DNA of 64,000 nucleotides from an uncultured Verrucomicrobiota bacterium (GCA_964609905.1 CAZSUH010000002.1:3148-67147); one strand, 5' to 3'. Positions 4,734 through 59,943 are shown, counted from the stretch's first letter. The notes: generated from the letters alone by a model not told the origin. Numbers and translations: made by a program.

Positions 4734-4764
4734 GAGGTCAGTATGAAGGGGGAGGCGATCTCCG

Positions 4765-5667: not shown

Positions 5668-5689
5668 GAAATGGGTGAAGCCTTTTATG

Positions 5690-7482: not shown

Positions 7483-7485
7483 GGC

Positions 7486-8454
7486 CTACAAACTCCCCAC
7501 GATCAGCCGGAGAATGTCCTCGGCCGTCAGCAAGCCGACCACGTCTCCCTTGGCGTCGGTGACGAGGCACAGCGATTGGCGGGTGCGACGCATGAGGGGG
7601 AAGAGTTCCGTCAGGGGGGTGTTGTGCTTGACGAACTGGAGGGGTTTCATGTAGCGGGTCAGGGGGACGGCGCTATCCGGGGGTTCCACCCGGAGAATAT
7701 CGAACAGGTTTACGAGGCCCACATATTCTTTTTTTTCCTCGGCGTAAACGGGCAGGTTGGAGTAGCCGCAGGCGCGGGCTTTCTGGAAGAATTCCGCCAC
7801 GGTGGCCTGGCTGGAGATGACGGTCATTTTGGCCGCAGGGGTCATGCAGACGGAAGGAATAGTATCGGACAGGTCGGCCACCCGCAGGATCATGATCCGC
7901 TGCTTGGGGGTGAGCAGTCCGCTGTCCGTGCTTTCCTGGGTCAGCACGAGCAGGTCGTCGCGGGTCATGACCGGCGCGCGGGCGACCTGGCCGTCCGGAT
8001 CGCGGATGATCCAGTCGGTGAGCAGGGTGATGGCGCGGATCAGGGGGTTCATGAGACGCGCCAGTGCTTCCAGCGTCCCGATGAAGGGGCGGGTGCGGGC
8101 GATGGGATGGGCGCGAAACCAGGCCTTGGGGATGTATTCGCAGCCGATCAGGATGCCAAGGGTCATCAGGGAACCGGAAAGGAATTCGGCGCCATGGGGC
8201 AGCAGTTGGTCGGCAAAACTGGCCGCGAGAATGGAGCCCATGATCATGCAGATGTTGGTGCCGATCAGGGTGGCCCCGAAGAGGCGGCCGGGGTTGTCCA
8301 GAAAGGCCTGAATCCGCAAGGCCCAGGGTTCCTCCTCCTCCACGTGCGGCCGGAGTTTCAGGCGGTTGATGGAGATGATGCCGGTTTCGATACCTTCGAA
8401 GAAGGCGTTGCCGATCAGGCAGAGCAGGATGAGCAGGGGATACAAGGACAGCAT
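7486..8454 (-). CDS. CNNM-family transporter paralogue (DUF21 transmembrane domain + CBS pair) lacking the CorC_HlyC C-terminal domain
   Basis: DUF21 helices (MLSLYPLLILLCLIGNAFFEGIETGIISINRLKLR) followed by CBS motifs. The start at MLSLYP is preceded by GGAGG. Confidence 0.6.
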   Translation of the reverse strand: MLSLYPLLILLCLIGNAFFEGIETGIISINRLKLRPHVEEEEPWALRIQAFLDNPGRLFGATLIGTNICMIMGSILAASFADQLLPHGAEFLSGSLMTLGILIGCEYIPKAWFRAHPIARTRPFIGTLEALARLMNPLIRAITLLTDWIIRDPDGQVARAPVMTRDDLLVLTQESTDSGLLTPKQRIMILRVADLSDTIPSVCMTPAAKMTVISSQATVAEFFQKARACGYSNLPVYAEEKKEYVGLVNLFDILRVEPPDSAVPLTRYMKPLQFVKHNTPLTELFPLMRRTRQSLCLVTDAKGDVVGLLTAEDILRLIVGSL

Positions 8455-14928: not shown

Positions 14929-14945
14929 GCCACGCATCCGGCCGG

Positions 14946-33900: not shown

Positions 33901-36900
33901 GGCGCCTACCACAGCCTGGCGCTGCGGATGGATGGATCGGTCGCGGCCTGGGGTTGGAATGGATATGGGCAGACGGATATTCCGGCCGGGCTTAGCAACG
34001 TCACGGCACTCGCAGCGGGAGAAAACCACAGTCTGGCGCTGCGCGCGGATGGGACGGTGCTGGCCTGGGGCGGCAATGGAAGCGGTCAAACGAACGTGCC
34101 GGCGGGCCTGGTTGACGTTCAGGATGTGGCGGCGGGCGGCGCCCATTCTCTCGCCTTGCGGGCGGACGGGACCGTGGCGGCCTGGGGTGGGAATGAATAT
34201 GGGCAGACCGATATTCCAACCGGCCTCAGCAACGTCACGGCGATCGCGGCGGGAGAAAACCACAATCTGGCGCTGCGGGCGGATGGAACGGTGGCGGCCT
34301 GGGGGAATGGCGGGCAGGGGCAGACCAATGTGCCGGTTGAACTCGGCAACGCGGTGGCGGTGGCGGCGGGCGGGTATCACAGCCTGGCGCTGCGTGCGGA
34401 CGGGACGGTGCTGGCCTGGGGATCGAACAACGAAGGCCAGACGAATGTGCCGGCGGGGCTGAGCAACGCGGTGGCGGTGGCGGCGGGCGAGAAGCACAGC
34501 CTGGCATTTCTGGCGGACGGGACGGTGATGGGCTGGGGCGATAACGGGAGCGGCCAGTCCGCGCCCCCGTCGGGCTTGAGCCACGTGACGGCGGTGGCGG
34601 CGGGCGGAAGCCACAGCCTGGCGGTTTTGTGGGGCGCGGCGCCGGCGCCGGCGCCGATGGTGGACCGGGTGGAAACGGCGGCCGGCCGGCCGTTCTATCT
34701 CCGGACGCGCGCGTTGGGCGGTTGGCCGATGCGGTATCAATGGGAGGTGAACGGCGCGGCCATCGACGGGCAGACAAACGCCGTGCTGACGGCGCGGGAA
34801 ACGAGCCCCGGCCTGCGGGAATACCGGTGCGTGATTTCGAATGCCTGGGGCGCAACCACGAGCCGCGTGGTGTCCGTGAACGCGGCTTGTGTCGCGGCCT
34901 GGGGGCAGAACGAATTCGGCCAGGCCGACGTGCCGCGGGGGTTGTCGGACGTGATGGCGATGTCCGCGGGGGGCTATCACAGTCTGGCGCTCAGGAGGGA
35001 CGGAACGGCGAAAGCCTGGGGCCTGAATGGGAACGGTCAAGCCCATGTGCCGCCGGGCTTGAGCAACCTGACCGCGATCGCGGCGGGCGGGTATCATAAT
35101 CTGGCGTTGCGGGAAGACGGGACGCCGGTCAGTTGGGGTAACGCGTCCTATGGCCTGACGAATATTCCCGCGGGGTTAACCCAGGCGGTGGCCGTGGCCG
35201 CGGGGAATGTCCACAATCTGGCGCTGCTTGCGAATGGCACGGCTGCGGCCTGGGGCTATGGCGGGAATGGGCAGACGAATGTGCCGGCGGGGTTGAGCAA
35301 TGTGACCGCGATTGCGGCCGGCGGCTACCATAATCTGGCGCTGCGGGTGGACGGCTCCGTCGTGGCGTGGGGGTGGAACGAGTATGGGCAGACGAACGTC
35401 CCGGCGGGGTTGAGCAACGTGACGGCGGTGGCCGCCGGCCTGAACCACAGCCTGGCGGTGTTGGCGGACGGAACCCTGGTGGCGTGGGGACGCAACGAAA
35501 TGGGCCAGGGGGATATCCCGGCCGGTCTGAGCAATGCGGTCGAAGCGGCGGGCGGGGATTACCACAGCGTGGCGTTGCGGGCGGATGGAACCCTGGCGGC
35601 CTGGGGGCATAACAGCGACGGGCAAGCGGTCGTGCCGGAGGGATTGAGCAATGGGATGCGCGTGGCGGCCGGGTATTATCACAATCTGGCGGCGCTGGGA
35701 TCCGGCCCGCCCGCGGTGGCGCCGATGGTTCGACAGGCGGAGTTGATCGCCGGCCAGACGGTGTGTTTGCGGGTTGCGGCATCCGGCGGCCGCCCGATTC
35801 GATATCAATGGGAGCGAAACGGCGAGCGCTTGGACGGGCAAACCGGCGCCATGCTGGCGGTGACGGCGCAGGCTCTCGGAGACTGGGAATACCGGTGCGT
35901 GATTTCGAATGCCCTGGGCGTGATCACCAGCGGAGTGGTGCGCGTGGCGGTGAAGCCCCCGCGGGTGTCGATTGACCGGACGACCCTGAATGTGCCCGAA
36001 GGCGGGACCGCGCAATTCGGCGTCAAATTGAGCGCCCAGCCGACCGGGGAGACCGTGGTGGCGGTGGCGCGGGTGTCGGGCGACGCGGATATCGCGGTCA
36101 GCGCGGGAGCGTCGCTCACGTTCACGCCGGGTAATTGGGACGCGTATCAGGCCGTGACCCTGGCCGCGGCCGAGGACGACGGGGATCAGGCGAACGGCGC
36201 GGCGACGATCCGGTGCGGCGGCGTGGACGTGATCCCCGCGGAACTCGCGGCCATCGAGGCGGATGACGACGTCTTGCTGACGGTGAACTCGCCGTATGGC
36301 GTCGTGAGCAGGAATCCGGACCAACCGTATTATGAAACGGGATCCGTGGTGACGCTCACGGCATCGCCACGCGCGTCCTATGTCTTTGTCGGGTGGAGCG
36401 GCGGCGCGAGCGGGGCCGCCAATCCGGCGGCCGTGACGATGGACGGCGACAAGACGGTGACGGCGAACTACGGGCCCGTCAAACCCGTCGTGTTGCCGCC
36501 GCGGACGATCGCCGCGAAATCCTTCACGGCCCGTTGGAGATGGGTGGAAGGCGGGGCGCCGGAGGGGCAGTTAAGCGTCGCCACGGATGCCGCGTTCACC
36601 AAGCCGGTCGCGGGATACCAGAACCGGTACGTGGCGAACGTTTCGGAATGGCTTGTCACGGGGTTGCGTTCCGGGATCACCTATTGGTATCGGGTGCGGC
36701 GCGTATTGCCGGGGGGCGAGTTGAGCGGCTGGTCGACCGCCATGAAAGTGCGGACCGGGAAAGGGCTGCCGGCTTTCAAGAACCTGCTGAACGACGGCCC
36801 GGCGGCCCGGGGCGTGAAGCAGCAGTTTGCGGTGGCCAACCTGGCGGCCGGCCGCGGCGTGTTGACGGTGAAATCCTCCAATCTGAACGGGGTCAAGCCG

Positions 36901-37599
36901 GTGTTGTCGGGCGGCGTGTTGACCCTGCAACAGCTCTGGAAGGCGCCGGTCAAGTCGGCGAAGCTGACGTTCACGCTGACGCATGCGGCCACCGGCTACA
37001 AGGCCTCCTATCAGGCCACCCTGAGCCGGGCCGGGGGGAGCGTGGCGATTATCGGAAAATCGGCCCTCACCAATGCCGGGACCCGCGCGGCCCAGGAACT
37101 CACGTTGGAAAACCGGACGGGCGGAAGGGTGTATGGGCTCAGGGTCCGGGCGCTGGGGTTGGACCGGGCGGCGTGGCTGATCAACCGAACCGGGCTGGAC
37201 CCGGTCAGCAAGGCGGCGATATTGGAGATCCCCTGCGTATGGCCGGCGAGTTCGCAGATGGTGGTGCGGTTGATTTACAACATTGCCTATAAGAAGCAGG
37301 CTAAGACGCGGCCGGTGACGTATGGCGCGTGGGCGATTCTGACGCCGGTGGGCGGGGCGGGCCCGGTTCACCGGGAGCTGGCGGTGGGGCAGCGGGAGTG
37401 GTATGACGGACTGTGGCTGCTCGGGTTGCCGGCCAACCGCAACCGGCGCTACACGGTCTACCACTCGGATGATAACGGGGCCACCTGGACGCCGGATGCG
37501 CCGGCGATCCGCGCGACGGCCAATTATCTGATGTGGCTGGATATGGACGAGGCGGCGCCGGAGGGGCGTCTCTACCGGGTGTTGGATACGGGGCTGTGA
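27904..37599 (+). CDS. Giant secreted multi-propeller protein (3231 aa)
   Basis: Single uninterrupted ORF. Signal peptide: MKFTFSLLFLCGLFGFMSG. About 49 tandem ~40-aa RCC1-type repeats (COG5184-like), consensus AAG..HSLALRADGTV.AWG.N.YGQT.VP.GLSNV. They are organised as seven 7-bladed propellers, each followed by an Ig-like domain with motif YQWERDG...EYRCVISNA.G..TS.VVRVTV; two of the seven modules carry a second, tandem Ig. After the repeats come an Ig/cadherin-like domain, an InlB-B-repeat-like domain (LTVNSPYGVVSRNPDQ...VFVGWSGG), an FN3-like domain, and a ~290-aa C-terminal domain of unknown function. The module period is ~1070 bp. Confidence 0.8.
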   Translation: MKFTFSLLFLCGLFGFMSGRDCDAENVVAWGNNLYGQTNVPAGLGDVRAVSAGGYHSLALRTDGTVSAWGYNVVGQTNVPSGLCNVVALGAGYAHNLALRGDGTVVAWGLNSYGQTNVPAGLSNVVAVAGGGWHSLALRADGSVVAWGYNEYGQTNVPAGLSGVTAIAAGTYHNLALRADGTVVAWGWNARGQTNVPVSVSNVVAAAAGVEHSLALKADGTVAGWGYNGYGQRSIPAGLSDVTEVAGGDYHSLALRADGSVVVWGYNSSGQTNVPAGLSNVAAIDAGDYHNLAAVEVGAPVAFPMVRQTVIGGGKCLFLRAVAAGARPMQFQWERDGEPVGGQTNAVLAVRDSLPGEKEYRCVISNAWGAVTSDTVRVTVGNLAAWGWNEYGQTALPQEVTNAVAVAAGGFHGLALRSDGTLAGWGLNGYGQAAAPAGLSNVTGVAAGYTHSLALRTDGTVMAWGENDVGQTNVPVGLSNVTAVAAGGRHCLAVRADGTLTAWGADDCGQAVPPANLSSVVAAAAGERHSLALRANGTVTVWGDNTYGQKNVPAGLRQAAAVAAGAYHCLAVRVDGTVMAWGRNTEGQTTVPAGLTNVVAVGAGWGHSVAVRADGTVTNWGLSGRGQGDIPPGLSNVTAIAGGDYHTLALLGSGAPVALPLVGQLSVAAGQMLYVRAEAAGARPMHYQWERDGNAVAGQTGAVLSVRDVVPGIKEYRCVIANARGVTTSGVARVSVANVALWGGQYLSQLNLPPGLNNAVAAAGGGSHGLALRADGTVAAWGENDYGQTAVPAGLSNAVAIAAGVRHSLALQADGAVRAWGANDSGQTNVPADLRGVTAVAAGGNHSLALEADGTVTAWGENEAGQTAVPAEVSNGVAIAAGLDHSLALRADGTVVAWGANEAGQSDVPVGLTNAVAVAAGGSHSLALRADGTIVSWGSNDLGQRNLPAGLSNGVTVAAGYRHSLALRADGTVAMAGWNEYGQQEAPPGLSNVAAVAAGWSQSLGVCGVGAPVALPMVEQAVVVAGDGLFLQAGVLGAWPLAYRWERNGEPLEAPPGAVLRVWGTVPGVGEYRCVISNAYGVTTSGVVRVTVDPLRMRTHPLRGTPYLGQTWAFAADAYGVPPIRYQWMKNGIPIVGETGTTLAVTDCGFGDSGEYRLIASNALAVATSDVARLTVVNVAAWGDNGWGQTAIPGNLTNAASVAAGENHSLALRADGTVAAWGWNGYGQTAVPAGLINMTAVAAGACHSLALRADGTVAAWGWNEYGQAAVPTGLSNVTAVAAGANHCLALAADGRVSAWGDNDYGQTNLPAGLSNVTAIAAGDIFNLALGADGRVWAWGNNDDGQTNLPAGLSNVTAIAAGVAHGLALRADGTVAAWGWNEYGQANVPAGLSNVTAVAAGSTHSLAVRADGSVMVWGHNGAGQTNAPADLRHVVAAAAGGQHALALLGTDAPAPAPMVERTVVVAGGGLFLRAGVLGAWPMAYRWERDGIPAAGQTGAVLAVNNAEMGTWNYRCAVSNAWGATTSGVVRVTVEPLRVSLHPRGGIRYLGQSWSFTGAAYGVEPIGYQWFKDGVAMAGETGTTFSVAACGLADSGDYGMVASNALGSVTSALARLAVVNVAAWGYDGQGQTDVPSDLSNAVAVSAGYVFSLALRENGRVAVWGAGGMGQWDVPAGLTNAVAVAAGYDHALALRADGTVAGWGDNTSGQATPPEGLNNVTAVAGGVDHSLALRADGTVAAWGDNGQGQTAVPGDASNVTAIAAGDRHNLALRADGTVAAWGNNYFGQTDVPAGLSNVAAVAAGGSFSLALREDGSLVAWGYNYYGQTNVPPDLLDTAAASAGGSHCLALRQSGTVEAWGNDGSGETDVPADLRHVTAVAAGGAHSLAVQWTGAPRPAPMVGEAATAPGRLLFLRAGALGGRPMAFRWECDGVPVIGSAGPVLKVEETTPGAREYRCVISNAWGVATSAVVRVTVGNLVAWGNGEEGQTDVPFDTNIAAVAAGAYHSLALRMDGSVAAWGWNGYGQTDIPAGLSNVTALAAGENHSLALRADGTVLAWGGNGSGQTNVPAGLVDVQDVAAGGAHSLALRADGTVAAWGGNEYGQTDIPTGLSNVTAIAAGENHNLALRADGTVAAWGNGGQGQTNVPVELGNAVAVAAGGYHSLALRADGTVLAWGSNNEGQTNVPAGLSNAVAVAAGEKHSLAFLADGTVMGWGDNGSGQSAPPSGLSHVTAVAAGGSHSLAVLWGAAPAPAPMVDRVETAAGRPFYLRTRALGGWPMRYQWEVNGAAIDGQTNAVLTARETSPGLREYRCVISNAWGATTSRVVSVNAACVAAWGQNEFGQADVPRGLSDVMAMSAGGYHSLALRRDGTAKAWGLNGNGQAHVPPGLSNLTAIAAGGYHNLALREDGTPVSWGNASYGLTNIPAGLTQAVAVAAGNVHNLALLANGTAAAWGYGGNGQTNVPAGLSNVTAIAAGGYHNLALRVDGSVVAWGWNEYGQTNVPAGLSNVTAVAAGLNHSLAVLADGTLVAWGRNEMGQGDIPAGLSNAVEAAGGDYHSVALRADGTLAAWGHNSDGQAVVPEGLSNGMRVAAGYYHNLAALGSGPPAVAPMVRQAELIAGQTVCLRVAASGGRPIRYQWERNGERLDGQTGAMLAVTAQALGDWEYRCVISNALGVITSGVVRVAVKPPRVSIDRTTLNVPEGGTAQFGVKLSAQPTGETVVAVARVSGDADIAVSAGASLTFTPGNWDAYQAVTLAAAEDDGDQANGAATIRCGGVDVIPAELAAIEADDDVLLTVNSPYGVVSRNPDQPYYETGSVVTLTASPRASYVFVGWSGGASGAANPAAVTMDGDKTVTANYGPVKPVVLPPRTIAAKSFTARWRWVEGGAPEGQLSVATDAAFTKPVAGYQNRYVANVSEWLVTGLRSGITYWYRVRRVLPGGELSGWSTAMKVRTGKGLPAFKNLLNDGPAARGVKQQFAVANLAAGRGVLTVKSSNLNGVKPVLSGGVLTLQQLWKAPVKSAKLTFTLTHAATGYKASYQATLSRAGGSVAIIGKSALTNAGTRAAQELTLENRTGGRVYGLRVRALGLDRAAWLINRTGLDPVSKAAILEIPCVWPASSQMVVRLIYNIAYKKQAKTRPVTYGAWAILTPVGGAGPVHRELAVGQREWYDGLWLLGLPANRNRRYTVYHSDDNGATWTPDAPAIRATANYLMWLDMDEAAPEGRLYRVLDTGL
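27970..35800 (+). repeat. In-frame tandem coding repeat array (120-bp RCC1 blade units grouped in ~1.07-kb super-repeats), containing near-identical DNA copies
   Basis: Example: ctggcgttgcgggcggacgggacggtggcggcctggggttggaacg occurs at ~31531 and ~31651. A second motif, gacgaacctgccggc.ggcttgagcaacgtgac.gccatcgcggcggg, occurs at ~31823 and ~31943. Ig-domain starts recur at ~28890, 29960, 31030, 32350, 33670, 34735 and 35805. Confidence 0.75.
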
Positions 37600-46180: not shown

Positions 46181-47330
46181 ATGAATGAGGATGTCCTGGC
46201 AAGGCTGGACGCGATTCGCGGCCGGCTCGCGGAAATGAGAGGTTATCTTTGACGTCGACGGACGCCGCACCCGGGTAACCGAACTGGAGCGCCGCACCTC
46301 GGCGCCCGATTTCTGGAACGATCCCAACAAGGCCCGCGAGTTGCTGGATCAGGTGACCCGCGAGCGGGACATCCTGAATCCCTTCGACGCGCTCGTCAAG
46401 CGCGCCGAAGACGCCGCCGTGCTCCTCGAGATGGCCGGCGCGGAAAACGACCCCGACATGGCCCGGCTGGCCGCGGAGGAAGCCGAGTCCGATCTCGCGC
46501 CGCTCGAAAAGGCCGTGATCGCCATGGAGCTCAAATCCATGCTGAGCGGTCCCCTGGATCGGAACAACGCATTCCTGACGCTGCACGCGGGCGCGGGCGG
46601 CACGGAGGCCTGCGACTGGGCCGCCATGCTGATGCGCATGATCCGGCGGTATTGCGAAAACAAGGGATTCAAGGTCGATCTGCTGGACTTTCAGGACGGC
46701 GACGAAGCCGGCTTGAAAAGCGCGTCACTCCAGGTGAGCGGACCCTATGCCTACGGCTATCTCCGATCCGAGCGAGGCGTGCACCGGCTGGTGCGCATCA
46801 GCCCGTTCGATTCCAACAAGCGGCGCCACACGTCGTTCGCCTCGTTGGATGTGACCGCGGAGATCGACGACTCGATCGAGATCGAGGTCCTGGACGCCGA
46901 CATACGGGTCGATACGTTCCGCTCCAGCGGCGCGGGCGGGCAGCACGTCAACAAGACGGATTCGGCGATCCGGCTCACGCACCTGGCCACGGGGTTCGTG
47001 GTGTCGTGCCAGACCCAGCGGTCGCAGCACCAGAATCGCGCGCAGGCCATGAAGATGCTCAAGTCGAAGCTCTACGAACTGGAACTGGACAAGCAGCGGC
47101 GGGAGATGGACCGGTTTTACGGGGACAAGGGCGACATCTCCTGGGGCAACCAGATCCGCTCCTACGTCCTGCAGCCCTATACGCAGGTGAAAGACGAGCG
47201 CACCGAGCTGAAAACGTCCAATGTGCAGGCGGTGCTGGACGGCGATTTGGACGAGTTTGTGGAAGCGTATCTGAAAAAACAGCGATTGGCCGGATCGCCC
47301 ACACCGGGAGAAGACACGCATGTCACTTAG
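46181..47330 (+). CDS. prfB: Peptide chain release factor 2 with a programmed +1 ribosomal frameshift (frame 0 46181..46249, then +1 frame 46251..47330)
   Basis: ORF1 (MNEDVLARLDAIRGRLAEMRGYL) ends at the canonical CTT TGA C shift site at 46247..46253. The site is preceded by an SD-like AGAGG. The +1 frame continues as DVDGRRTRVTELE... into a protein with the SPF and GGQ motifs. Confidence 0.85.
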
Positions 47331-48890: not shown

Positions 48891-50345
48891 CTACGCTTCC
48901 TTTTTGCTGAAATCCAGCAGGTGGCCGAGGACGCGCAAGCCGGCGCGCCAATAGAACCGGACGTCCGCGAACGAGCGGATGGATGCGAGTTTCCGCCACA
49001 CGAAGCGGGGCGTGAGGAACGACTTGTAGATGTCGCGCGTCAGGGCCATGACGGTGTCGTCCGGCATCGGCGTTTTCATGATGGGTTCGCGCATGTCGTA
49101 GCGGTCCCAATCCTCGGTTTTCAGCCAGCCGTTCGCCTGGCACTCGTTGAACAGGGGTGTGCCCGGATAGGGAATGACCACCGTGGCCTGAAGGGTGTCG
49201 ATGTAGCCCTTGTCGAACAGGGAACGGGTCAGGGCGATGGTTTGTCGGGCCTGGGCTTCGCTCTCCCAGGGGTAGCCGACCATGCAGGTGACGTGCGGCT
49301 GGAGCCCGGCTTTTTTAGCCAGTCGCATGGAATTTTCGATGTCGTTCGCTTTTCCGCATTTTCGGATGCGCGCCAGGGTTTCGGGGCTGGCGGACTCCAG
49401 GCCGAACAGCAGGAACCGGAAATTCGCGCGGGCCATCAGGTCATAGTGCTCCTGGTTCAGCACGCCGGGAATCATGTTGCAGCCCAGCACGACTTTTTTG
49501 TGATAGCCCCGCTCGACGATCCGTTCGCAAAAGCGGCGCAGCCAATGGCCGGCGGGGAAGCAGCCGGAATCGTCGAACACCTCCTTCACCCCGTACCGGT
49601 CGATCAGCAGGCCGATCTCGTCGGCCAGCCGCTCGGGTGTCTGGCAGCGCCAGCGGTTGTAGAGGGTGGTCCAGGAGCAGAAGGCGCACTTGCCCCACCA
49701 GCAGTCGCGGCCGACCATCGTGTAGGTTCCCGGCGTGAAGCGGAAGTTGCCGTTTTTATTGGCGTAGAGCCGCCAGCGGGTCAGGTCGCGATCGATGAAG
49801 GGGAGGTCGTTCAGGTCCTGGTCCAGCACGAACGGGCCGGTGGATCGAACCTGCGCGCCATCGCGGAGCCAGACGCCGGGCGGCAGCGGCGCGCCGGATT
49901 CGAGGTGGCGGGCGAGATCCTGGAGCAGGAAGTCGTAGTTGCCGCCGGTGAGGATGAAATCCACGGGGCAGGCGGCCATGGTCTCCGCCGGGAGCGCGGT
50001 GGGATGGTCGCCGCACAGGACGATGCGGGCGCGGCCGCCAAGGGATTTGAGGCGGCGGACGGTTTCCCAGTAGCGTTTGATGATGGGGGTTTTGGCTTCG
50101 ATCAGGAGCACGTCGGGGTCGAACGACTGGAACTCCTGTTCGAACCGCTCGGGCGACCAGGCTTCGGCGATGCCGTCGGCCCAGCGGACGTCATGGCCGT
50201 TTCGCGCGGCGAGCGAGGCGGCATAGGCGGGCACCATGGGATAGACATAGGTGGGCTTGTTGAACCACTGAAACTGGCGGTTCTGGGACAGCAGCGGCAC
50301 GCCCTTGGGGGAGGGGATCGGAGGATAGCCGACCATGATTTTCAT
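48891..50345 (-). CDS. B12-binding-domain radical SAM enzyme (class B rSAM, HpnJ/BchE-like architecture)
   Basis: N-terminal cobalamin-binding-like domain, CWWGKCAFC (CX3CX2C), 484 aa. Last gene of a three-gene operon with 4-bp overlaps. Confidence 0.7.
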   Translation of the reverse strand: MKIMVGYPPIPSPKGVPLLSQNRQFQWFNKPTYVYPMVPAYAASLAARNGHDVRWADGIAEAWSPERFEQEFQSFDPDVLLIEAKTPIIKRYWETVRRLKSLGGRARIVLCGDHPTALPAETMAACPVDFILTGGNYDFLLQDLARHLESGAPLPPGVWLRDGAQVRSTGPFVLDQDLNDLPFIDRDLTRWRLYANKNGNFRFTPGTYTMVGRDCWWGKCAFCSWTTLYNRWRCQTPERLADEIGLLIDRYGVKEVFDDSGCFPAGHWLRRFCERIVERGYHKKVVLGCNMIPGVLNQEHYDLMARANFRFLLFGLESASPETLARIRKCGKANDIENSMRLAKKAGLQPHVTCMVGYPWESEAQARQTIALTRSLFDKGYIDTLQATVVIPYPGTPLFNECQANGWLKTEDWDRYDMREPIMKTPMPDDTVMALTRDIYKSFLTPRFVWRKLASIRSFADVRFYWRAGLRVLGHLLDFSKKEA

Positions 50346-52153
50346 GTGTTGCTCCCGCGGGAGTTGCCGGGTTCGGAGGGGTGGTCGAAGCGTTGCACCG
50401 CGCGCGGGGTTCCGCCGAGAAAATAGCCTTGGAGAAAACGCGAGCCATACACGAGATGAGTGGCCATGATGCCCAGCCAGACCGTGATCCAGGTGAGCGG
50501 TCGGCGGTCAAAGGCGCCGAGAAACGTGACCAGCAGGTAGGCGGCCGTGGCGCCCAGGTAGGCCCGAAGGAGCCAGGCGTGGAATGGCGCGACAAGGGCG
50601 CCGCCAACCAGGCCGAGGAGGAACAGGGAGGGAAGCCAATAGGCCAGGCGATGCGAGTTTTCGGGGAAACGCCGCGCAAAGAGGCCGCGGTGCAGTCCAT
50701 AGCGGCCCACCTGGCGCAGGTGGGGGAGAAACAGGCCGCGGCGATGATGGTAAACCAGCGCGCGCGGCTCGTAGAGAATCCGGCCGCCGTTCCGATGCAC
50801 CAGGTCCAGGCAGAGCAAGGTGTCTTCGCCGGGCCAGTAATCGGTGCGGAAGCCCCCGGCCTGGCGCAGGGCCGCGGCGGAAACGAACAGGTTGCAACTG
50901 GGGAAATCGTCCACCGCCCGCACGCGATCCGGGGTATACCGGTGGCGGGCGCCCCCGGAGACGAGGGGGTTGGCGTAAACCTGGCCGCTTCTCTGAGCGG
51001 GAGGGGGATCGTCGGGTGGGGTCACGGCCGGTCCGCCCACGCCGACCACGCCCGGAATGGAAAAATAGCCGACCGCCCTCTGCAGCCAGTCGGGGACGGG
51101 GTAGGCGTCGTCGTCAAGAAAGGCGACGATGTCCCCGCGCGCGTCCCGGATCCCGATATTGCGTTTTTCCGCGGGTCGGAGGCGGCCGGTGGGAATTTCC
51201 CGGATTCGTTCCGGCCAGGGATGGCCGGCGGCGGCGTCCGGCAGGAGAAGCACTTCGTAATGGGGGTAGGTTTGGGCCGCGATGCTCGCGAGGGCCTGGC
51301 GGAGGAAAGCGGTTTCCGAAGGATAGGCGATCACGATGCTCACGAGCGGCGGGGGGGCGGGAATGCGGATGTCGGGGATGGAGTGGTAATATTTCAGGAT
51401 GTGGAGCCGGTAAAACACGGCCAGCGTGTCATTGAGCACCGAGCGGATGGCCTGCAAAGGCACACCGCCCCAGGCGCCGTGGAAATCGACCCGCACGGGC
51501 GTCTCGGCGACGCGGAAGCCGCGGGCGATCGCGAGGGCCAGCACTTCCAGGTCGAACGCGAACGCCTTGACCAGCATGCGGGGGAACGCCCAGTCGAGAC
51601 ACTTGCGGCGATACAGTTTGAGGCCGGTCTGGGTGTCGTGCACGGGCAGGTTGAAGGCGAATTTGATGAAGACATAATAAACGAAACTGATAAACCGGCG
51701 CAACGGGGGGTAATGCAGATTCGAATCGCGATGCAGTTTCGAGCCGATGACGATGTCCGCGCCGGATGTTTCCAATTTCGAGAAAAAAGAGGGAATCTGT
51801 TCGGGCGGCAGATCGAGATCGGCGTCAAGCAGGACGATGAACGCCCCGGTGGATTTTTCGAATCCGGCGCGGAGGGCGCCCCCTTTTCCGGCGTTTTGCT
51901 TCAATAGGACCGGCACGACCTCCGGCAGGCCGGCGGCGGCTTCGCGGATGCGGGCCGCGGTGTCGTCCGTGCTACCGTCGTCGATGACCACGATCTCAAA
52001 AGACGCGCGGCCGTTGAACACCCCGTGGACGCGGCGGATGTTGGTGGCGATCACATCCTGGAGATTGTGGGCCGGCATGAGTATGGAAATCGGCCCCTCG
52101 GTCCGGGTGAGGCGGCGGATGGCATCCCAATGCTGGAACTCGGCGTCGGTCAT
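50342..52153 (-). CDS. Bifunctional membrane glycosyltransferase with two GT2 domains (polyprenyl-phosphate-sugar-synthase-like + second GT-A domain) and C-terminal TM helices
   Basis: Domain 1: VVIDDGSTDDT...LDADLDL. Domain 2: SIVIAYPSE...FLDDDAYPVPDWL (DXD). Hydrophobic C-terminus. The start is at MTDAEFQ. Confidence 0.65.
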   Translation of the reverse strand: MTDAEFQHWDAIRRLTRTEGPISILMPAHNLQDVIATNIRRVHGVFNGRASFEIVVIDDGSTDDTAARIREAAAGLPEVVPVLLKQNAGKGGALRAGFEKSTGAFIVLLDADLDLPPEQIPSFFSKLETSGADIVIGSKLHRDSNLHYPPLRRFISFVYYVFIKFAFNLPVHDTQTGLKLYRRKCLDWAFPRMLVKAFAFDLEVLALAIARGFRVAETPVRVDFHGAWGGVPLQAIRSVLNDTLAVFYRLHILKYYHSIPDIRIPAPPPLVSIVIAYPSETAFLRQALASIAAQTYPHYEVLLLPDAAAGHPWPERIREIPTGRLRPAEKRNIGIRDARGDIVAFLDDDAYPVPDWLQRAVGYFSIPGVVGVGGPAVTPPDDPPPAQRSGQVYANPLVSGGARHRYTPDRVRAVDDFPSCNLFVSAAALRQAGGFRTDYWPGEDTLLCLDLVHRNGGRILYEPRALVYHHRRGLFLPHLRQVGRYGLHRGLFARRFPENSHRLAYWLPSLFLLGLVGGALVAPFHAWLLRAYLGATAAYLLVTFLGAFDRRPLTWITVWLGIMATHLVYGSRFLQGYFLGGTPRAVQRFDHPSEPGNSRGSNT

Positions 52154-52356
52154 GGAGCGGGCGCAGCCTTCGGGGGTTGGCGCGCCGGGGACTCCGCCTC
52201 TTCCATCAGCATCACGGGGATGCCGTCTCGGACGGGATAGCGCAGCCCGCATGCGGCATTGATGCAGCACAGGAACGCCCCCTCCGGCGCCACCGGTTGG
52301 CGGCATTTCGGACAGCAGAGCAGGCGGATCAGTTCTTCCGGAACGTTTTCTTTCAT
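52150..52356 (-). CDS. Trm112-like zinc-ribbon protein (DUF343 / YcaR family)
   Basis: LLCCPKCRQP...CGLRYPVRDGIPVML matches the Trm112/YcaR pattern. ATGA overlap with the GT2 gene. Confidence 0.5.
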   Translation of the reverse strand: MKENVPEELIRLLCCPKCRQPVAPEGAFLCCINAACGLRYPVRDGIPVMLMEEAESPARQPPKAAPAP

Positions 52357-53315
52357 GAACACCAAGCCTTCAGCACGATCCAGGATTCATTTTGTCACGT
52401 TTGAGAGTTGGAAACAACCGAAAAAGGGAATATAACCGGAGCGATGACCCAGCGAGTCCTGATGATTTTCGTGGATGGATTCGGAATCGGCCCCGCGGAT
52501 CCGGCGGTCAATCCCTTTTGCGGCGGCACAGCACCGGTCCTGGAGCGCTGGCTCGGGGAATCCTGCGTTCCGATGGATGTGACGATGGGCGTGCCCGGGT
52601 TGCCGCAGAGCGCGACGGGACAGACGGCGCTGCTGACGGGGGCCAACGCGGCGGCGGCGGTGAATGGGCATGTGCCGGGTTTCCCCGGGCCCGACCTGCG
52701 GGCGATCATCGAGGCGCATAACATCTACGATCGTCTGCAGTCCCGCGGTTACCGGGCCGCGAGCGCCAATGCCTACTTCCTGGAGTCGATGCCCGAGCGG
52801 TGGGTGCGACGCCGTCCGTCCGTCACCACGGTGGCGGCGTTGAAGGCGTTCGGCACGGTGCGGGACGGCGCGGCCCTGCGGGCCGGCCAGGCCGTGTTTC
52901 ACGATTTAACGCGGGCCTCGCTGGTGGAGCGGGGGTATGAGGGGCCGGTGGTCGAGCCGGAGGAGGCGGCGCGGCATCTTTGGACGATTGCCCGGGGCCA
53001 CGATTTCACGCTGTTCGAGTTTTTCGAGTCCGACCAGGCGGGACATCGGGGCACGATCGCGCAAGCGCGGACGGTGGCGCGCAAACTGGACCGGTTTTGC
53101 GGGGAGCTGGAAAGGGGGCTTGAACGGGAACGGGAGCTGCTGATCCTGACCAGCGATCACGGGAACATGGAGGACATGTCCCACGGGATGCACACGGGAA
53201 CGCCGGTTCCCTTTGTGGCCATCGGCGCGGGGAGCAGCCGGCTGTTGAAGGCCGTCCACGCCATCACGGACGTCACGCCCGCGGTTCTGGATCTGTTTCC
53301 CGATCGGGCTCGAAA

Positions 53316-54671
<1,356 letters not shown>

Positions 54672-55768: not shown

Positions 55769-56281
55769 ATGCGGTGCGACTATTGCGGCGAGCCGGATGC
55801 GACCGTGCATGTGACCCAGCTTTCGGAGGGCGAGGTCAAGAATCTGCACCTGTGCGCCACGTGTGCCGCCAAGAACGGCATCCACGTGGACGAGCCGGTT
55901 TCCCTGGCCGACCTGCTGCTGAAGGCGGCTCATGGCACGGACGTCGCGGAGGCCGGCGGCGCGGCCGACACGCGCTGTCCCTCCTGCCACATGCGGCTCA
56001 GCGACTTCCGGAAAACTTCCCGCCTGGGCTGTCCCGCCTGTTACGAGGCGTTCGCGGACGAGTTGGCTGGCATTCTGATGGGGCTGCACAAGAGCCAAGC
56101 CCATGTCGGCAAGGCGCCCGCGGCGGTCTTGGCGATCCGGAGCCGGCAGGCCCAGGACGAGCGGTTGGTCGCCCGGCTTCAGGAGGCAATCGCGGCTGAG
56201 CGATTCGAAGAGGCGGCGCGGGTGCGCGATGAACTCCGGATTCTCCGCGCCGAGCCGCCGGAAGCGGCAGGCGGCTCGTGA
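55769..56281 (+). CDS. mcsA: McsA-like zinc-finger/UVR-domain protein (arginine kinase activator)
   Basis: CDYCGE...CATC and CPSCH...CPACY zinc fingers, plus a C-terminal UVR-like motif (RFEEAARVRDELRIL). Confidence 0.6.
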   Translation: MRCDYCGEPDATVHVTQLSEGEVKNLHLCATCAAKNGIHVDEPVSLADLLLKAAHGTDVAEAGGAADTRCPSCHMRLSDFRKTSRLGCPACYEAFADELAGILMGLHKSQAHVGKAPAAVLAIRSRQAQDERLVARLQEAIAAERFEEAARVRDELRILRAEPPEAAGGS

Positions 56282-57336
56282 ACCGGGTTCCACATCCGCG
56301 GGAGCTTCCCGCCTGGCTGAGGGGCACGGACGCCCAGGGCATTGTGATGAGCGCCCGAATCCGGCTCGCCCGGAACGTGGCGGAGTCCGCTTTTCCGGGC
56401 TGGGCGGGCGACGAGGAAGGAATCCGGCTGTGCCGCCGGGTGCTGCCCCTGATTGAACGCGTGCCCCTGCTGGCGGGCGGTGTCGTGTGGCGTCTGGAGG
56501 AGTTGGAGACGCAGGACCGCCAATGGCTGCGGGAGCGCCACCTGATCAGCACCGAACTGGCGGGCAAGGGCGCCGGCAGCGCCGTACTGGTGTCGGCGGA
56601 CGAAACGCTGGCGGTGATGATCAACGAGGAGGACCATCTGCGCATTCAGGGGATGGCTTCCGGCCGGGATCTGCGGGCGCTGTGGCAGATCGTGGATGCC
56701 CTGGACACGGCGATCGGGGAGCGGTTGGCGTATGCCGTCTCCCCGCGGTTGGGTTTTCTGACGGCTTGCCCCAGCAATGTGGGCACCGGCCTGCGCGCCA
56801 GCGTCATGCTGCACCTGCCCGGGTTGCGGATGACGGGGGATGCGGAGAAGGTGGTCAAGGGGTTGGGCCGTCTGCAACTGGCCGTGCGGGGCCTGTTGGG
56901 CGAGGGCACGGATGCGCTGGGCGGAATGTACCAGATCTCCAACCAGGCCACCCTGGGCGCGAGCGAAACGGCCCTGATCGACCGGTTGCTCGCCCTGGTT
57001 GAGGAGGTGGCCGGCCACGAAGCGAACGCCCGCCAGCGTCTTCTGGAAACCCGTCCCGTCCAGGTGCGGGATCACGTGGCGCGCGCGCTGGCCCTGTTAG
57101 CGCACGCCCGGGTCATGAGCTCCGAGGAGGCGCTGGACCTGCTGTCGGGCGTCCGCCTGGGGTTGGCCCTGGGCTGGTTGAAGGGGGTCGACACCCCGCT
57201 GTTGAACCGGCTGTTTTTGACGGTCCAGCCCGCCCATCTGCAGCAGGAGGCGGGGAAAGCGCTTTCCGCCGAGGAGCGGGACGAGTGGCGCGCCCAGCGC
57301 TTGCGCGACTGGGTGGCCGGGATCGAATGGGTTTGA
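56278..57336 (+). CDS. mcsB: Protein arginine kinase McsB (ATP:guanido phosphotransferase)
   Basis: CPSNVGTGLRASVM phosphagen-kinase signature. GTGA overlap with mcsA. Confidence 0.8.
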   Translation: MNRVPHPRELPAWLRGTDAQGIVMSARIRLARNVAESAFPGWAGDEEGIRLCRRVLPLIERVPLLAGGVVWRLEELETQDRQWLRERHLISTELAGKGAGSAVLVSADETLAVMINEEDHLRIQGMASGRDLRALWQIVDALDTAIGERLAYAVSPRLGFLTACPSNVGTGLRASVMLHLPGLRMTGDAEKVVKGLGRLQLAVRGLLGEGTDALGGMYQISNQATLGASETALIDRLLALVEEVAGHEANARQRLLETRPVQVRDHVARALALLAHARVMSSEEALDLLSGVRLGLALGWLKGVDTPLLNRLFLTVQPAHLQQEAGKALSAEERDEWRAQRLRDWVAGIEWV

Positions 57337-57387
57337 CCAAGGCCGGTTTTCATGAGATAATTTACCGCTTTGAGATAAAGGACCGGC

Positions 57388-59943
57388 ATGAACAATTTCA
57401 ACGAATACACGCCGCGCGCCCGCCAGGTCATCCAACTGGCCCGCCAGGAGGCGGAAAAGTTCAATCACACCTACGTGGGCACGGAACACCTGCTCCTGGG
57501 CCTGATCGCCCTGGGCGAGGGGGTGGCCGTGGACGTCTTAAAGCGGATGAATTTGTCGATCGAACGCGTGCGGATGGAAGTGGAAAAGCAGGTGGGCCAG
57601 GGGGGCGAAACCAAGACGGTGGGGCCGATCCCGTTCACGCCCCGCGCCAAGCGGGTATTGCAATTTGCCGCGTCGGAAGCCCGGGAACTGCACCACAACT
57701 ACATCGGCACGGAACATCTGCTGCTGGGCCTGTTGCGCGAGGAAGAGGGCGTGGCCGCCCAGGTGTTGCGCACCCTCGGCGTGGATATCGAATCCGTGCG
57801 CGCTGAAGTGATGCGGGTGCTGGACCCGAACTTCACGCCGCCCGAGCCGGGCGAAGCCGGGGACGAAGACGAGGCCGGCGAGGAGCCTCCCGAAAGCCGA
57901 AGCGCGCCGTCCGGCGCGCGGCCTGCTTCCGAAGGCGCTCCCGCCGCGCCCGGCGCGGCGGACAAGGCCAAAGTCAAAACGCCCGCGCTCAACACCTTCG
58001 GGCGCGACCTGACCGAACTGGCCCGGCAGGACAAGCTGGACCCCGTCATCGGGCGGACCCTGGAACTGGAGCGGGTCATCCAGATCCTGTGCCGCCGCAC
58101 CAAGAACAACCCCGTCCTGATCGGCGAGGCCGGCGTGGGCAAGACCGCGATCGTGGAGGGGCTGGCGCAGGCGATCGTGGAGGGCAACGTGCCCGAATCC
58201 ATGCGCAAAAAGAAGGTCATCACCCTCGACCTGGCGCTCATGATCGCGGGCACCAAGTACCGCGGCCAGTTCGAGGAGCGGATCAAGGCCATCATGGACG
58301 AGATCAAGCGGGCGGCCAACGTGATCCTGTTCGTGGACGAACTGCACACGATCGTGGGCGCGGGCTCCGCCGAGGGCGCCATGGACGCCTCCAACATCAT
58401 CAAGCCCGCCCTGGCCCGCGGCGAACTCCAGTGCGTGGGCGCCACCACCTTGGACGAATATCGCAAATACATCGAGAAGGACGCGGCCCTGGAACGCCGC
58501 TTCCAGACCGTCAAGGTCGAGGAGCCCAGCGTCGAGGAGGCAATCCGGATTCTTCAGGGAATCCGCCGCAAATACGAGGAACACCACCGCGTCAAGATCA
58601 CCGATGAAGCCCTGGAGTCCGCGGTCCGGCTCTCGGACCGTTACCTCAAGGGCCGGTACCTGCCCGACAAGGCCATCGACACGATCGACGAGGCGGGCGC
58701 CCGCGTGCGGATCCGCAACACGACCCGGTCGCCCGACTTGAAGAAACGGGAAGCGGCGATCGAGAAAATCCGCCTCAAGAAAGAGGCGGCGATCAAGGAG
58801 CAGCGCTTCGAGGAGGCGGCCCGGCTGCGGGACCGCGAGCGTCGCGACCGACAGGGGCTGGAGAACAAGATCGCGAAATGGCAAAAGGGCAACGCCCGCA
58901 AGAACCTGCGCGTGACGCCGGAAGACATCATGATGGTCATCTCCCGCTGGACCGGCATTCCGCTGGCCAAGATGGAGGGCCAGGAATTGGCCCGCCTGCT
59001 CGACATGGAGAAGGAACTCGAAAAAACGGTGATCGGCCAGAACGACGCCGTGCACACCATATCCAAGGCGTTGCGCCGTTCCCGGGCGGACCTCAAGGAT
59101 CCCCGACGCCCGATCGGTTCCTTCATCTTCCTGGGTCCCACGGGCGTCGGCAAGACCCTGTTGGCCAAGGCCCTGGCCGAGTTTATGTTCCAGGATCCGG
59201 AGGCCCTGATCCAACTCGATATGAGCGAGTTCATGGAAAAGTTCACCGTGTCGCGGCTGGTCGGATCGCCGCCCGGCTATGTGGGGTATGACGAGGGCGG
59301 TCAGTTGACCGAAAAAGTGCGCCGGCGTCCCTATTCGGTCGTGCTCTTCGACGAGTTCGAAAAAGCCCATCCCGATGTCATGCAGATTCTCCTGCAGATC
59401 CTGGAGGAGGGGCGGTTGACGGACAGCTTCGGGCGGAAGGTGGATTTCCGCAACACGATCGTGATCATGACCTCGAACCTGGGCGCCGACGCCAACAAGA
59501 CCGCGAGCGGCCTGGGCTTCCGCGACGCTTCCCCGGCGGGCGATTATCAGACCATGCGCGACACGATGATGGGCGAGGCCAAGAAGATGTTCAAACCCGA
59601 GTTCCTGAACCGGATCGACGAGGTGATCGTGTTCCGGCAGTTGACCCGGGCGGACGTGAGCCGGATTCTCGACCTGGAACTGGCCGGACTGGAGCAGCGG
59701 CTCAAGGCCCGCGAGGTCAGCCTGACGCTCAGCGCCGAGGCCCGGGACTTCCTCATCGACAAGGGGTTCGATCCCGCCATGGGCGCCCGGCCGTTGCGGC
59801 GGGCGGTGCAGAAATATATCGAGGATCCCCTGGCCGAGGATATTCTGCGCGGCCGGGTCAAACGCGGCGCCGTGGTGGAGGCGGTCCCGAGCCCGGAAGG
59901 GGCGCTGGCGTTTCCGATTCCGGAAACGGCGACCTCCCGCTAA
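57388..59943 (+). CDS. clpC: ATP-dependent Clp protease ATP-binding subunit ClpC
   Basis: Clp_N repeats, two AAA+ modules ([18 protein letters not shown]) and a UVR linker. Confidence 0.85.

Follow-up and report, generated by a model that had tools for sequence, protein, structure and literature searches.

The window, a 64,000-nucleotide stretch of DNA from an uncultured Verrucomicrobiota bacterium with a Kiritimatiellia-type (PVC) genome, holds a three-gene operon containing a widely conserved core: a membrane-anchored glycosyltransferase domain (GT2_C) and a radical SAM enzyme of a distinct, highly conserved and uncharacterised family. This core recurs across many bacterial phyla, in one archaeon and on a phage-like contig, and its probable role is to modify a lipid-linked sugar destined for the cell envelope. 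With a confidence slightly better than even, we read the operon as a compact module for a modified, membrane-anchored sugar of the cell envelope, in which the radical SAM enzyme would tailor a polyprenyl-phosphate-linked sugar. The view of the initial annotation that no characterised pathway accounts for these genes was borne out, as all NCBIfam matches fall far below their cut-offs, NCBI names family members only ‘radical SAM protein’, and our literature searches returned no characterised pathway matching the operon.

The operon itself is real. An ORF search recovered three minus-strand genes of 68, 603 and 484 aa at the coordinates first annotated, encoding a zinc-ribbon protein (52150–52356, from ATG), a GT2-GT2 fusion (50342–52153) and a radical SAM protein with a B12 domain (48891–50345). 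The ORF finder offered an upstream TTG at 52365 as an alternative start for the zinc-ribbon gene; the GT2-GT2 frame is open up to 52306, and homologs and an independent gene call place its start at the ATG at 52153. The tight packing with 4-bp overlaps that had been claimed can be read directly in the sequence, with ATGA stop/start overlaps on the minus strand joining the zinc-ribbon and GT2-GT2 genes at 52150–52153 (ATG 52153–52151, TGA 52152–52150) and the GT2-GT2 and radical SAM genes at 50342–50345 (ATG 50345–50343, TGA 50344–50342). Moreover, a public contig carries a 100% identical copy of the 603-aa protein, and independent gene calling there gave the 68-aa and 603-aa genes followed by a radical SAM gene truncated at the contig end, with identical overlaps. 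The neighbours of the operon in the window are housekeeping genes, with flippase, GT-C and sugar-nucleotide genes absent nearby.

The middle protein fuses a polyprenyl-phosphate-glycosyltransferase-like GT2 domain to a second DXD-bearing GT-A domain and transmembrane helices, an initial proposal upheld by Pfam, NCBIfam, PDB, hydropathy, AF2 and Foldseek comparisons. Pfam detects two Glycos_transf_2 stretches, the best at residues 23–186 (PF00535), and Glyco_trans_2_3 (PF13632) at residues 342–539. Profiles and fold together with PF00535 define the first domain, GT2_N (aa 1–262; 51368–52153, minus strand), as a polyisoprenyl-phosphate-glycosyltransferase-like GT-A domain with an invariant DAD motif and an equally invariant DTQTGLK loop. 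ArnC, PpgS, DPMS and GtrB are its best NCBIfam and PDB sequence matches (E 2e-17 to 9e-14 in the PDB), and Foldseek superimposes it on ArnC, DPMS and GtrB with an rmsd of 2.7–3.5 Å over about 230 residues at 22–28% identity. A GT-A fold with a DXD motif and structural similarity that includes the interface region place it among GT2 enzymes of the ArnC/DPMS/GtrB type. Assignment to a named equivalog was ruled out by score (ArnC 73.1 against a cut-off of 529 bits, PpgS 67.7 against 370, AglJ 47.2 against 325).

The second GT-A domain, GT2_C (aa 263–603; 50342–51367, minus strand), contains the motifs FLDDDA (DXD) and GEDT (GED) and ends in a membrane anchor of about three transmembrane helices (aa 503–578; 50420–50647, minus strand). 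These are seen as hydropathy peaks at residues 503–521 and 528–546 and as AF2 helices at 503–524, 526–546 and 552–578. The best NCBIfam match of GT2_C is MftF (TIGR03965); identity with MftF was rejected on a score of 149.7 bits against a cut-off of 280, a match confined to the GT2_C portion, and mft genes were not found nearby.

The third protein has the class-B-type architecture first assigned to it, in which an N-terminal B12-binding Rossmann domain precedes a radical SAM barrel. Pfam places B12-binding PF02310 at residues 40–131 (34.5 bits, cut-off 32.1) and PF04055 at 212–371 (62.2 bits). The Rossmann-like domain (about aa 1–170; 49836–50345, minus strand), delimited by PF02310, the AF2 model and alignment with HpnJ and BchE, shows alternating strands and helices in the model and a GDHxT motif. 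After its first strand lies an insertion (aa 8–36, including LLSQNRQFQWF; 50238–50324, minus strand) of almost invariant columns and low pLDDT, similar to one in HpnJ and missing from BchE in the alignment. The core barrel (aa 212–371; 49233–49712, minus strand), which fold matches also support, carries the three-Cys [4Fe-4S] motif C215-x4-C220-x2-C223 (RDCWWGKCAFC; 49677–49703, minus strand), invariant in 79 orthologs. Its CX4CX2C spacing is one residue longer than the canonical CX3CX2C found, in the same alignment, in HpnJ, BchE and homologous Lawsonia and Solidesulfovibrio proteins; a homolog on a viral contig has CX7CX2C. The family spans 225 related genome loci, the best 80 being 53–87% identical, and 124 of the 484 positions are at least 97% conserved among the 79 orthologs.

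The AF2 model of this enzyme (pLDDT 85.4) matches MgmA, TsrM, OxsB, CysS and TokK in Foldseek at E 1e-13 to 1e-18, and its top solved-structure match is AprD4 (E 1e-18, TM 0.70–0.75, 16% identity), an enzyme that acts on a sugar. The nearest characterised profiles, HpnJ and BchE, belong to enzymes acting on membrane-associated substrates. Cobalamin use is uncertain, because the B12-binding score is borderline (34.5 against 32.1, compared with about 80 for paralogs in the same cassettes) and AprD4 is not known to use cobalamin. A search of the window for a cobalamin riboswitch was negative.

Across other genomes, GT2_C and the radical SAM gene are adjacent more often than chance would allow. 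Among 70 informative loci, meaning those with enough sequence upstream of the radical SAM gene, a GT2_C ortholog immediately precedes it in 49. The adjacent pairs are often joined by a 4-bp stop/start overlap (29 of 51) and in six more by a 1-bp overlap, giving 35 of 51 in total. A strong GT2_C match near the radical SAM gene is missing in 17 of the 70 loci, about a quarter, several of which carry FCPU426, Kiritimatiellae or Verrucomicrobia labels; the two genes thus need not be paired in cis. Paired loci are labelled Kiritimatiellia, Lentisphaerae, Verrucomicrobia (including Methylacidiphilum), Latescibacterota, Nitrospiria and Gemmatimonas, and further Elusimicrobiota, Chlamydiae, Saccharibacteria, Nitrospinota, Melioribacteraceae and Methanoperedens. 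The system is not confined to PVC bacteria.

Outside this lineage, the pair is found within glycan cassettes of other phyla. GT2_N and GT2_C form one fused protein at 34 of 65 loci. Many phyla instead encode them separately, and a flippase-like gene then lies next to the two or separates them; at one locus (L067) GT2_N, a 12-transmembrane flippase-like protein and GT2_C are joined in a single ORF. Recurrent neighbours include the 12-transmembrane flippase-like protein (20 loci), a DPM1-like GT2, further GT2 and GT4 enzymes, a class I methyltransferase, NAD epimerases or SDRs, an NTP-transferase and the GT-C families YfhO and PMT_2. Paralogs on Lawsonia and Solidesulfovibrio plasmids (27–28% identity) likewise lie in glycan clusters, and downstream of the viral-contig homolog, 47% identical, lie RmlD-like, DegT and two GT2 genes.

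The zinc ribbon, initially counted as a component of the system, is instead a lineage-specific accessory gene outside it. It was found only in the window and seven related loci, few in number and Kiritimatiellia-type, where it always immediately precedes the GT2 fusion; the nearest relative (L001) lacks it. By its sequence, the protein appears to be of the bacterial YcaR/Trm112 type. It has four Cys (CPKC ... C-x5-C) and scores below the cut-offs of Pfam Trm112p (PF03966; 19 bits, gathering cut-off 22) and NCBIfam YcaR (19.1 bits, cut-off 126), and it aligns without gaps to E. coli YcaR over 60 residues (E 2e-7). Like YcaR/UPF0434 proteins it is about 60–70 aa long with CPxC and (Y/F)PxRDGIPV motifs; it differs from them in keeping four Cys and in its sub-threshold scores. 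E. coli ycaR similarly overlaps its downstream gene by 4 bp, but that gene is the sugar-activating kdsB and not a GT2 fusion. The ‘methyltransferase activator’ label first given to the protein is an extrapolation, because the function of bacterial YcaR-type orthologs is unknown (PMC5372719).

How the module might work can be outlined in four steps. Judging from homology and fold, GT2_N would act like ArnC, DPMS or GtrB, moving a sugar from a nucleotide sugar to polyprenyl phosphate at the cytoplasmic face. GT2_C, as a putatively non-processive GT-A enzyme held at the membrane by its roughly three helices, may then add a second sugar to the same or another membrane-anchored acceptor, following the logic of archaeal N-glycosylation by AglJ and then AglG. 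Translational coupling and family relationships suggest that the radical SAM enzyme would be produced in stoichiometric amounts with GT2_C and would abstract hydrogen from the lipid-linked sugar, thereby tailoring it; candidate reactions are C-methylation (which class-B enzymes catalyse most often), a carbocycle-forming rearrangement of the HpnJ/Cds kind, or a dehydration resembling that of AprD4. For both the GT2_C acceptor and the radical SAM substrate, these proposals draw on gene order only. Finally, going by other genomes, the 12-transmembrane flippase-like protein would export the product and GT-C enzymes (YfhO, PMT_2) would pass it to the final acceptor, with the YcaR-like zinc ribbon as an optional, lineage-specific partner. 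The initial wording, in which the two GT2 domains synthesize and then transfer a lipid-linked sugar, is unlikely as it stands, because both GT-A domains are of cytoplasmic type and would use nucleotide sugars, and transfer from polyprenyl-phosphate-sugar donors is normally performed by GT-C enzymes, genes for which lie near the cassette in other genomes.

An HpnI/HpnJ- or Cds-like route would have GT2_C attach a sugar to a bulk membrane lipid, and not to a polyprenyl-phosphate carrier, after which ring contraction by the radical SAM enzyme would give a cyclitol-type ether head group. In our judgement this is unlikely, but it deserves consideration. Among NCBIfam profiles, HpnJ and BchE rank highest with about 104 bits each, and no other class-B family exceeds 71 bits; HpnJ and the present family both have an insertion of about 20 aa following strand 1 and end in similar helical tails, and the genuine hpnIJK operon places a gene for a membrane GT2 directly upstream of hpnJ. 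Ring contraction by HpnJ and Cds is itself the accepted proposal (PMC13459092). The direct comparison with HpnI and HpnJ, named in advance as the way to overturn the initial annotation, nevertheless left it standing: the enzyme scores 104.7 bits against a TIGR03471 cut-off of 577.6 and is 24% identical to real HpnJ (BLASTP E 9e-22), the HpnI model does not hit the fusion, and neither GT2_N nor GT2_C is significantly similar to real HpnI (E above 0.2). Further against this route, an HpnK/YdjC-type deacetylase was found neither in the window nor among the recurrent neighbours, the fused GT2_N is of the polyprenyl-phosphate type, and the flippase-like and GT-C neighbours suggest a carrier-lipid pathway. 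Moreover, the family is present in Saccharibacteria and other CPR, which to our knowledge lack de novo lipid synthesis.

K4CP and PmHS2, two-domain GT2 polymerases, also match the fusion, and this similarity raises the improbable alternative that the fusion is a bifunctional co-polymerase making a disaccharide-repeat polysaccharide, with the polymer then modified by the radical SAM enzyme. In whole-protein Foldseek comparisons these two have the lowest E-values (1.8e-17 and 5e-15, respectively), covering both GT-A domains, and K4CP matches by sequence too. The corresponding TM-scores, however, are only 0.25–0.33 with an rmsd of 16–18 Å, indicating two generic GT-A domains and no common architecture. 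The likeness of GT2_N to ArnC (26–28% identity, rmsd about 3 Å in Foldseek), the separation of the domains in many phyla around a flippase-like gene, and the fact that conserved pairing with the radical SAM enzyme involves GT2_C alone all argue against a co-polymerase.

A shade less probable still is that the radical SAM enzyme modifies a lipid moiety, either the polyprenyl carrier or a lipid tail, by methylation, cyclisation or cross-linking (compare Tes, Grs, HpnP and HpnR), the adjacent GT2 reflecting a shared membrane location only. Several lipid-modifying radical SAM enzymes do have B12 domains (PMC13459092), and there are weak matches to a ladderane-cluster B12 radical SAM family (60 bits) and to HpnR (53.9 bits), yet these scores are weaker than those of HpnJ and BchE and far under their own cut-offs. 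The conserved, usually translationally coupled partner is a glycosyltransferase, no lipid-synthesis genes recur nearby, and the viral-contig homolog lies among sugar-nucleotide genes. That the operon is a bona fide copy of HpnI/HpnJ, BchE, mycofactocin MftF or arsenosugar biosynthesis is very improbable, since partial matches to HpnJ, BchE (TIGR02026; 103.7 bits), MftF and TIGR04283 (55.2 bits), and the JGI auto-annotation of some members as ‘anaerobic Mg-protoporphyrin IX monomethyl ester cyclase’, are refuted by curated cut-offs that are far higher (481.35 bits for BchE, 182 for TIGR04283), by pairwise identities of 24–26% to real HpnJ and BchE (26% for BchE) with no HpnI match, and by neighbours of the window operon among which hopanoid, bacteriochlorophyll and mycofactocin genes were not found.

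Returning to the tailoring of a carrier-linked sugar, the module resembles several known systems in part. Like HpnI-HpnJ-HpnK, which turns bacteriohopanetetrol glucosamine into a cyclitol ether, it has a membrane GT2 gene and, directly downstream, a gene for a B12-domain radical SAM protein of about 480 aa; HpnJ is one of its two best characterised profile matches, with the insertion and helical tail in common. Differences from it include the cysteine spacing, the extra polyprenyl-phosphate glycosyltransferase domain, the lack of an HpnK-like gene near the window operon, an HpnI unrelated to both GT2 domains, and the occurrence of the family in taxa and cassettes without a hopanoid context. 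AprD4, the radical SAM 1,2-diol dehydratase that serves apramycin biosynthesis, is built from two domains in the same arrangement and has a sugar substrate, but differs in sequence (NCBIfam model 24.9 bits against 500) and works in secondary metabolism on a soluble substrate.

Haloferax-type Agl pathways likewise employ a dolichyl- or polyprenyl-phosphate-hexose synthase (AglJ) and then a GT2 (AglG) extending the monophosphate-linked sugar, and the cassettes described here also hold a flippase-like protein, a methyltransferase and further glycosyltransferases. They are set apart by low profile scores (47.2 bits against 325 for AglJ, 45.8 against 440 for AglG), by the fact that no AglB-type oligosaccharyltransferase was seen, and by the radical SAM enzyme, of which we know no counterpart in the Agl pathway. 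In ArnC-ArnD-ArnT and GtrA/GtrB/GtrV, tailoring of a C55-P-sugar on the cytoplasmic side precedes its flipping and its transfer by a GT-C enzyme. Here, the tailoring would fall to a radical SAM protein in place of a deformylase or deacetylase, the glycosyltransferase carries an additional fused GT-A domain, ArnC reaches only 73.1 bits against 529, and the window operon is not adjoined by a GT-C or flippase gene. Even so, GT2_N matches ArnC, GtrB and DPMS in both sequence and fold, and the idea of carrier tailoring fits the flippase-like and GT-C neighbours of other genomes.

The three minus-strand open reading frames (ORFs) that the initial annotation had read as a tight operon were recovered by ORF calls at the same positions, encoding a zinc-ribbon protein of 68 aa (52150..52356), a GT2-GT2 fusion of 603 aa (50342..52153) and a radical SAM enzyme of 484 aa (48891..50345). 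Both junctions, read from the sequence, are ATGA overlaps (ATG 52153-52151 with TGA 52152-52150, and ATG 50345-50343 with TGA 50344-50342). The frame of the fusion is open upstream as far as 52306, and ATG 52153 is where independent gene prediction starts the protein on a public 3.7-kb contig, which by exact look-up encodes a 603-aa protein 100% identical to the window fusion. Gene calls on the same contig comprise a 68-aa protein, the 603-aa fusion and, truncated at the contig end, a radical SAM protein; for the radical SAM enzyme of the window, no exact match is on record. Housekeeping genes flank the operon on both sides, with secA (by sequence reading only), then lnt, prfB, yicC and gmk on one, and a GH1 beta-glucosidase, ilvE, mcsA, mcsB and clpC (clpC by sequence reading only) on the other. 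No Rfam families or tRNAs were found in the window and no sigma-70-like promoter upstream of the operon, and terminator-like sites were no more frequent than chance. Divergent from the operon and 51 bp away lies a gene for a metalloenzyme-superfamily protein (iPGM/phosphopentomutase-like; 52408..53352, plus strand; PF01676, 69.9 bits), which we exclude from the system because its synteny with the operon is confined to the three closest relatives, L001-L003 (L numbers denote loci in other genomes with radical SAM homologs).

Among the flanking genes, prfB (46182..47330, plus strand) carries a classical RF2 +1 programmed frameshift site at ~46237-46253 (AGAGGT TAT CTT TGA C), its downstream frame scoring 468.8 bits to TIGR00020. 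The mcsA-mcsB-clpC genes form a protein-arginine kinase module at 55769..59943 (plus strand) in this Kiritimatiellia-type genome, with McsB at 353.8 bits, slightly under its cut-off of 385, and McsA at 109.6 versus 210. Elsewhere in the window, a giant ORF of 3231 aa (27904..37599, plus strand) contains 41 RCC1_2 repeat stretches, Ig domains and an InlB B-repeat, in a region with a GC content of 0.69-0.70 and a GC skew of 0.22-0.28.

The first gene product does not reach the Trm112/YcaR cut-offs of Pfam or NCBIfam, yet aligns end to end and without gaps to Escherichia coli YcaR (E 2e-7), sharing the motifs CPxC and (Y/F)PxRDGIPV; the E. coli ycaR gene has a 4-bp overlap with kdsB. Using tblastn against the best 80 of 225 related loci, a Trm112-like gene was found elsewhere in only seven, and it is absent from the nearest relative, L001. 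The 603-aa protein consists of two GT-A domains. In both profile and sequence searches, residues 1-262 (GT2_N) match ArnC, PpgS, DPMS and GtrB, and in the AF2 model (pLDDT 87.7) they superpose on those glycosyltransferase structures at ~3 Å over ~230 residues. In residues 263-603 (GT2_C), the FLDDDA and GEDT motifs are invariant across 36 homologs and are followed by ~3 TM helices, as judged from hydropathy and the AF2 model; among profiles, MftF matches this domain best, with 149.7 bits where the cut-off is 280.

Pfam recognises two domains in the 484-aa protein, Radical_SAM and, at 34.5 bits (cut-off 32.1), B12-binding. A sequence search found no close solved structure, and its AF2 model (pLDDT 85.4) matches AprD4, MgmA, TsrM, OxsB, CysS and TokK with TM scores up to 0.70-0.75. 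Because the B12-binding score is borderline and cassette paralogs reach ~80 bits, the cobalamin dependence of the family is uncertain. Across 79 full-length orthologs, 124 of the 484 positions are conserved at ≥97%, and the cluster motif is RDCWWGKCxFC (CX4CX2C), where HpnJ, BchE and two plasmid paralogs in the same alignment have CX3CX2C. Only five Cys are conserved in these orthologs, two of them outside the cluster motif, so an auxiliary Fe-S cluster is not indicated. A near-invariant insertion of ~20 residues (LLSQNRQFQWF) follows strand 1; a comparable insertion occurs in HpnJ and a Lawsonia paralog but not in BchE, which may point towards an HpnJ-like relationship, as a lead rather than proof.

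A protein search with this enzyme yielded thousands of matches, the best 120 at 59-94% identity, and a scan of one genome per species gave 225 related loci, the best 80 at 53-87% identity. Labels among those 80 include Kiritimatiellia, Lentisphaerae, Victivallales, Verrucomicrobia (including a Methylacidiphilum), Latescibacterota, FCPU426, Nitrospiria, Gemmatimonas, Elusimicrobiota, Chlamydiae, Saccharibacteria/Patescibacteria, Nitrospinota, Melioribacteraceae, delta- and 'lambda'-proteobacteria, and the archaeon Methanoperedens. Members are named plainly 'radical SAM protein' by NCBI, and JGI auto-annotations are equally generic. Uncharacterised radical SAM families are many; this one is also very conserved and widely distributed. 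More distant paralogs (27-28% identity) lie within glycan clusters on Lawsonia and Solidesulfovibrio plasmids. The cluster on Lawsonia intracellularis plasmid 1 (L083; NC_008012.1 8292-25437) encodes two radical SAM proteins, five class I methyltransferases, SIS, HAD-IIIA, DUF2304 and DUF2142 proteins, and three GT2s, the first radical SAM protein being 33% identical to HpnJ and 28% to the window enzyme. On a viral contig (L089; IMG/VR UViG_3300020045_005338), a 47%-identical family member with the motif CX7CX2C (6001..7419, plus strand) lies downstream of numerous small ORFs and of genes encoding AAA_24 and AAA_25 proteins, and is followed by genes for a cell-wall hydrolase, an RmlD-like reductase, a DegT aminotransferase and two GT2s. 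These GT2s show generic similarity only and were rejected as GT2_N or GT2_C orthologs, and the region may be a phage glycan-modification module.

Conservation of the gene neighbourhood was assessed by tblastn of the window proteins against the best 80 loci, with counts restricted to loci with enough flank. A GT2_C ortholog lies on the same strand ≤700 bp upstream of the radical SAM gene in 49 of 70 informative loci, and GT2_N was found in 40 of 65, fused to GT2_C in 34 of these. The stop codon of GT2_C and the start codon of the radical SAM gene overlap in 35 of 51 pairs, 29 of them by 4 bp and six by 1 bp. Seventeen informative loci, several of them labelled FCPU426, Kiritimatiellae or Verrucomicrobia, lack a strong match to GT2_C in the vicinity of the radical SAM gene. 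An apparent GT2_C-radical SAM fusion in locus L044 was rejected, as a TAG stop separates the two genes. In locus L012, a 35%-identical radical SAM paralog (5964..7454, plus strand) separates the GT2 fusion from the orthologous radical SAM gene, a tandem duplication inside the module.

Outside the PVC group, ORF clustering, gene maps and family scans revealed a recurring cassette with the order GT2_N, 12-TM protein, GT2_C, radical SAM enzyme, membrane GT2, class I methyltransferase and GT4s, often with an inserted NAD epimerase, SDR or NTP-transferase. The multi-pass membrane protein, with ~12 TM helices, is conserved in 20 loci (among them L071, 3024..4367; L078, 2676..3968; L058, 4778..6169; L065, 4851..6077) and has no Pfam or NCBIfam match; nor do large membrane proteins in Saccharibacteria and Methanoperedens loci (L076, 4904-7552; L065, 3111-4841). 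In an Elusimicrobiota single-cell genome (L067), GT2_N, a 12-TM flippase-like region and GT2_C form one 1103-aa ORF (4630..7941, plus strand) directly 5' of the radical SAM gene. The same locus holds two more B12 radical SAM paralogs (2869-4443 and 14431-15825). On two metagenomic contigs, the GT-C families YfhO and PMT/PMT_2 and a Polysacc_synt flippase occur near the radical SAM gene.

Gene structure, domain and fold assignments, the distinctness of the family and its conserved coupling to GT2_C are established by these results; the initial annotation's observation therefore stands, and its reading as a candidate novel glycolipid or glycan-modification system is partly supported. We infer a carrier lipid as acceptor, the order of steps and a sugar as the radical SAM substrate. 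The two GT2 domains, whose anatomy fits this role, would build a polyprenyl-phosphate-linked mono- or disaccharide, the radical SAM enzyme, produced along with GT2_C, would tailor the membrane-anchored sugar, and export and final transfer would fall to proteins encoded elsewhere in the genome. C-methylation is the commonest outcome of class-B radical SAM chemistry. Rearrangement would be favoured by the HpnJ-like relatedness; dehydration plus reduction would fit the closest structural match, AprD4, together with the SDR genes often found nearby. That the family performs a non-methylating rearrangement of a polyprenyl-phosphate-linked hexose, creating a new envelope sugar in PVC bacteria, Elusimicrobiota, CPR, other phyla and some archaea, is a tentative proposal that we regard as rather unlikely in this full form; possible outcomes include HpnJ/Cds-like ring contraction to a carbocyclic sugar, or a C-branched or deoxy sugar on the carrier lipid. 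Among the less likely rivals, an HpnI/HpnJ-like conversion of a lipid head group would also draw on the HpnJ-like relatedness, against which HpnI has no significant similarity to GT2_N or GT2_C. Two GT-A domains in one chain could likewise suggest a K4CP-like co-polymerase; the first of them matches the ArnC and DPMS type, and it is GT2_C by itself that is the conserved partner of the radical SAM enzyme. Lipid-tail chemistry by the radical SAM enzyme, as in other lipid-modifying members of the superfamily, would have to accommodate a recurrent setting of glycosyltransferases.

Were sugar tailoring on the carrier lipid correct, radical chemistry would act on carrier-lipid-bound sugars in many lineages, including the poorly understood Kiritimatiellia, Lentisphaerae, Verrucomicrobia, Elusimicrobiota, CPR and Methanoperedens, and a bacterial Trm112/YcaR-type protein would for the first time be placed in a functional context. 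If the reaction were a rearrangement, carrier-lipid glycan assembly would gain what is, to our knowledge, its first radical SAM step; our literature search found no description of a radical SAM tailoring step in Und-P or Dol-P glycan pathways. With a quarter of the protein near-invariant across phyla, an unusual CX4CX2C spacing in its cluster motif and GT2_C as constant partner, the family is a well-defined enzymology target, and the 100%-identical public sequence of a member and compact three-gene operons can be drawn on for heterologous expression.

The operon matches none of the named systems with which it was compared. No NCBIfam model reached its cut-off for the operon proteins: the radical SAM enzyme scored 104.7 bits against HpnJ (cut-off 577.6), 103.7 against BchE (cut-off 481.35) and ≤71 against the remaining class-B families, and the HpnI model did not match the GT2 fusion. 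These curated cut-offs rule out bona fide HpnI/HpnJ, BchE and MftF. HpnI/HpnJ and BchE identity is ruled out again by comparison with a real hpnI-hpnJ-hpnK operon (Mycetohabitans megaplasmid) and a real bchE, whose products HpnJ and BchE share 24% and 26% identity, respectively, with the window enzyme. Full-text literature searches found no published description of the family, and a review from 2026 on radical SAM enzymes that modify lipids lists only Tes, Mss, Gms, GrsA/B, Gmm, Cds, HpnH/J/P/R, Jaw5 and the ladderane enzymes. Its pairing of a glycosyltransferase with a tailoring enzyme of the B12-type radical SAM class is of a kind already familiar from other systems.
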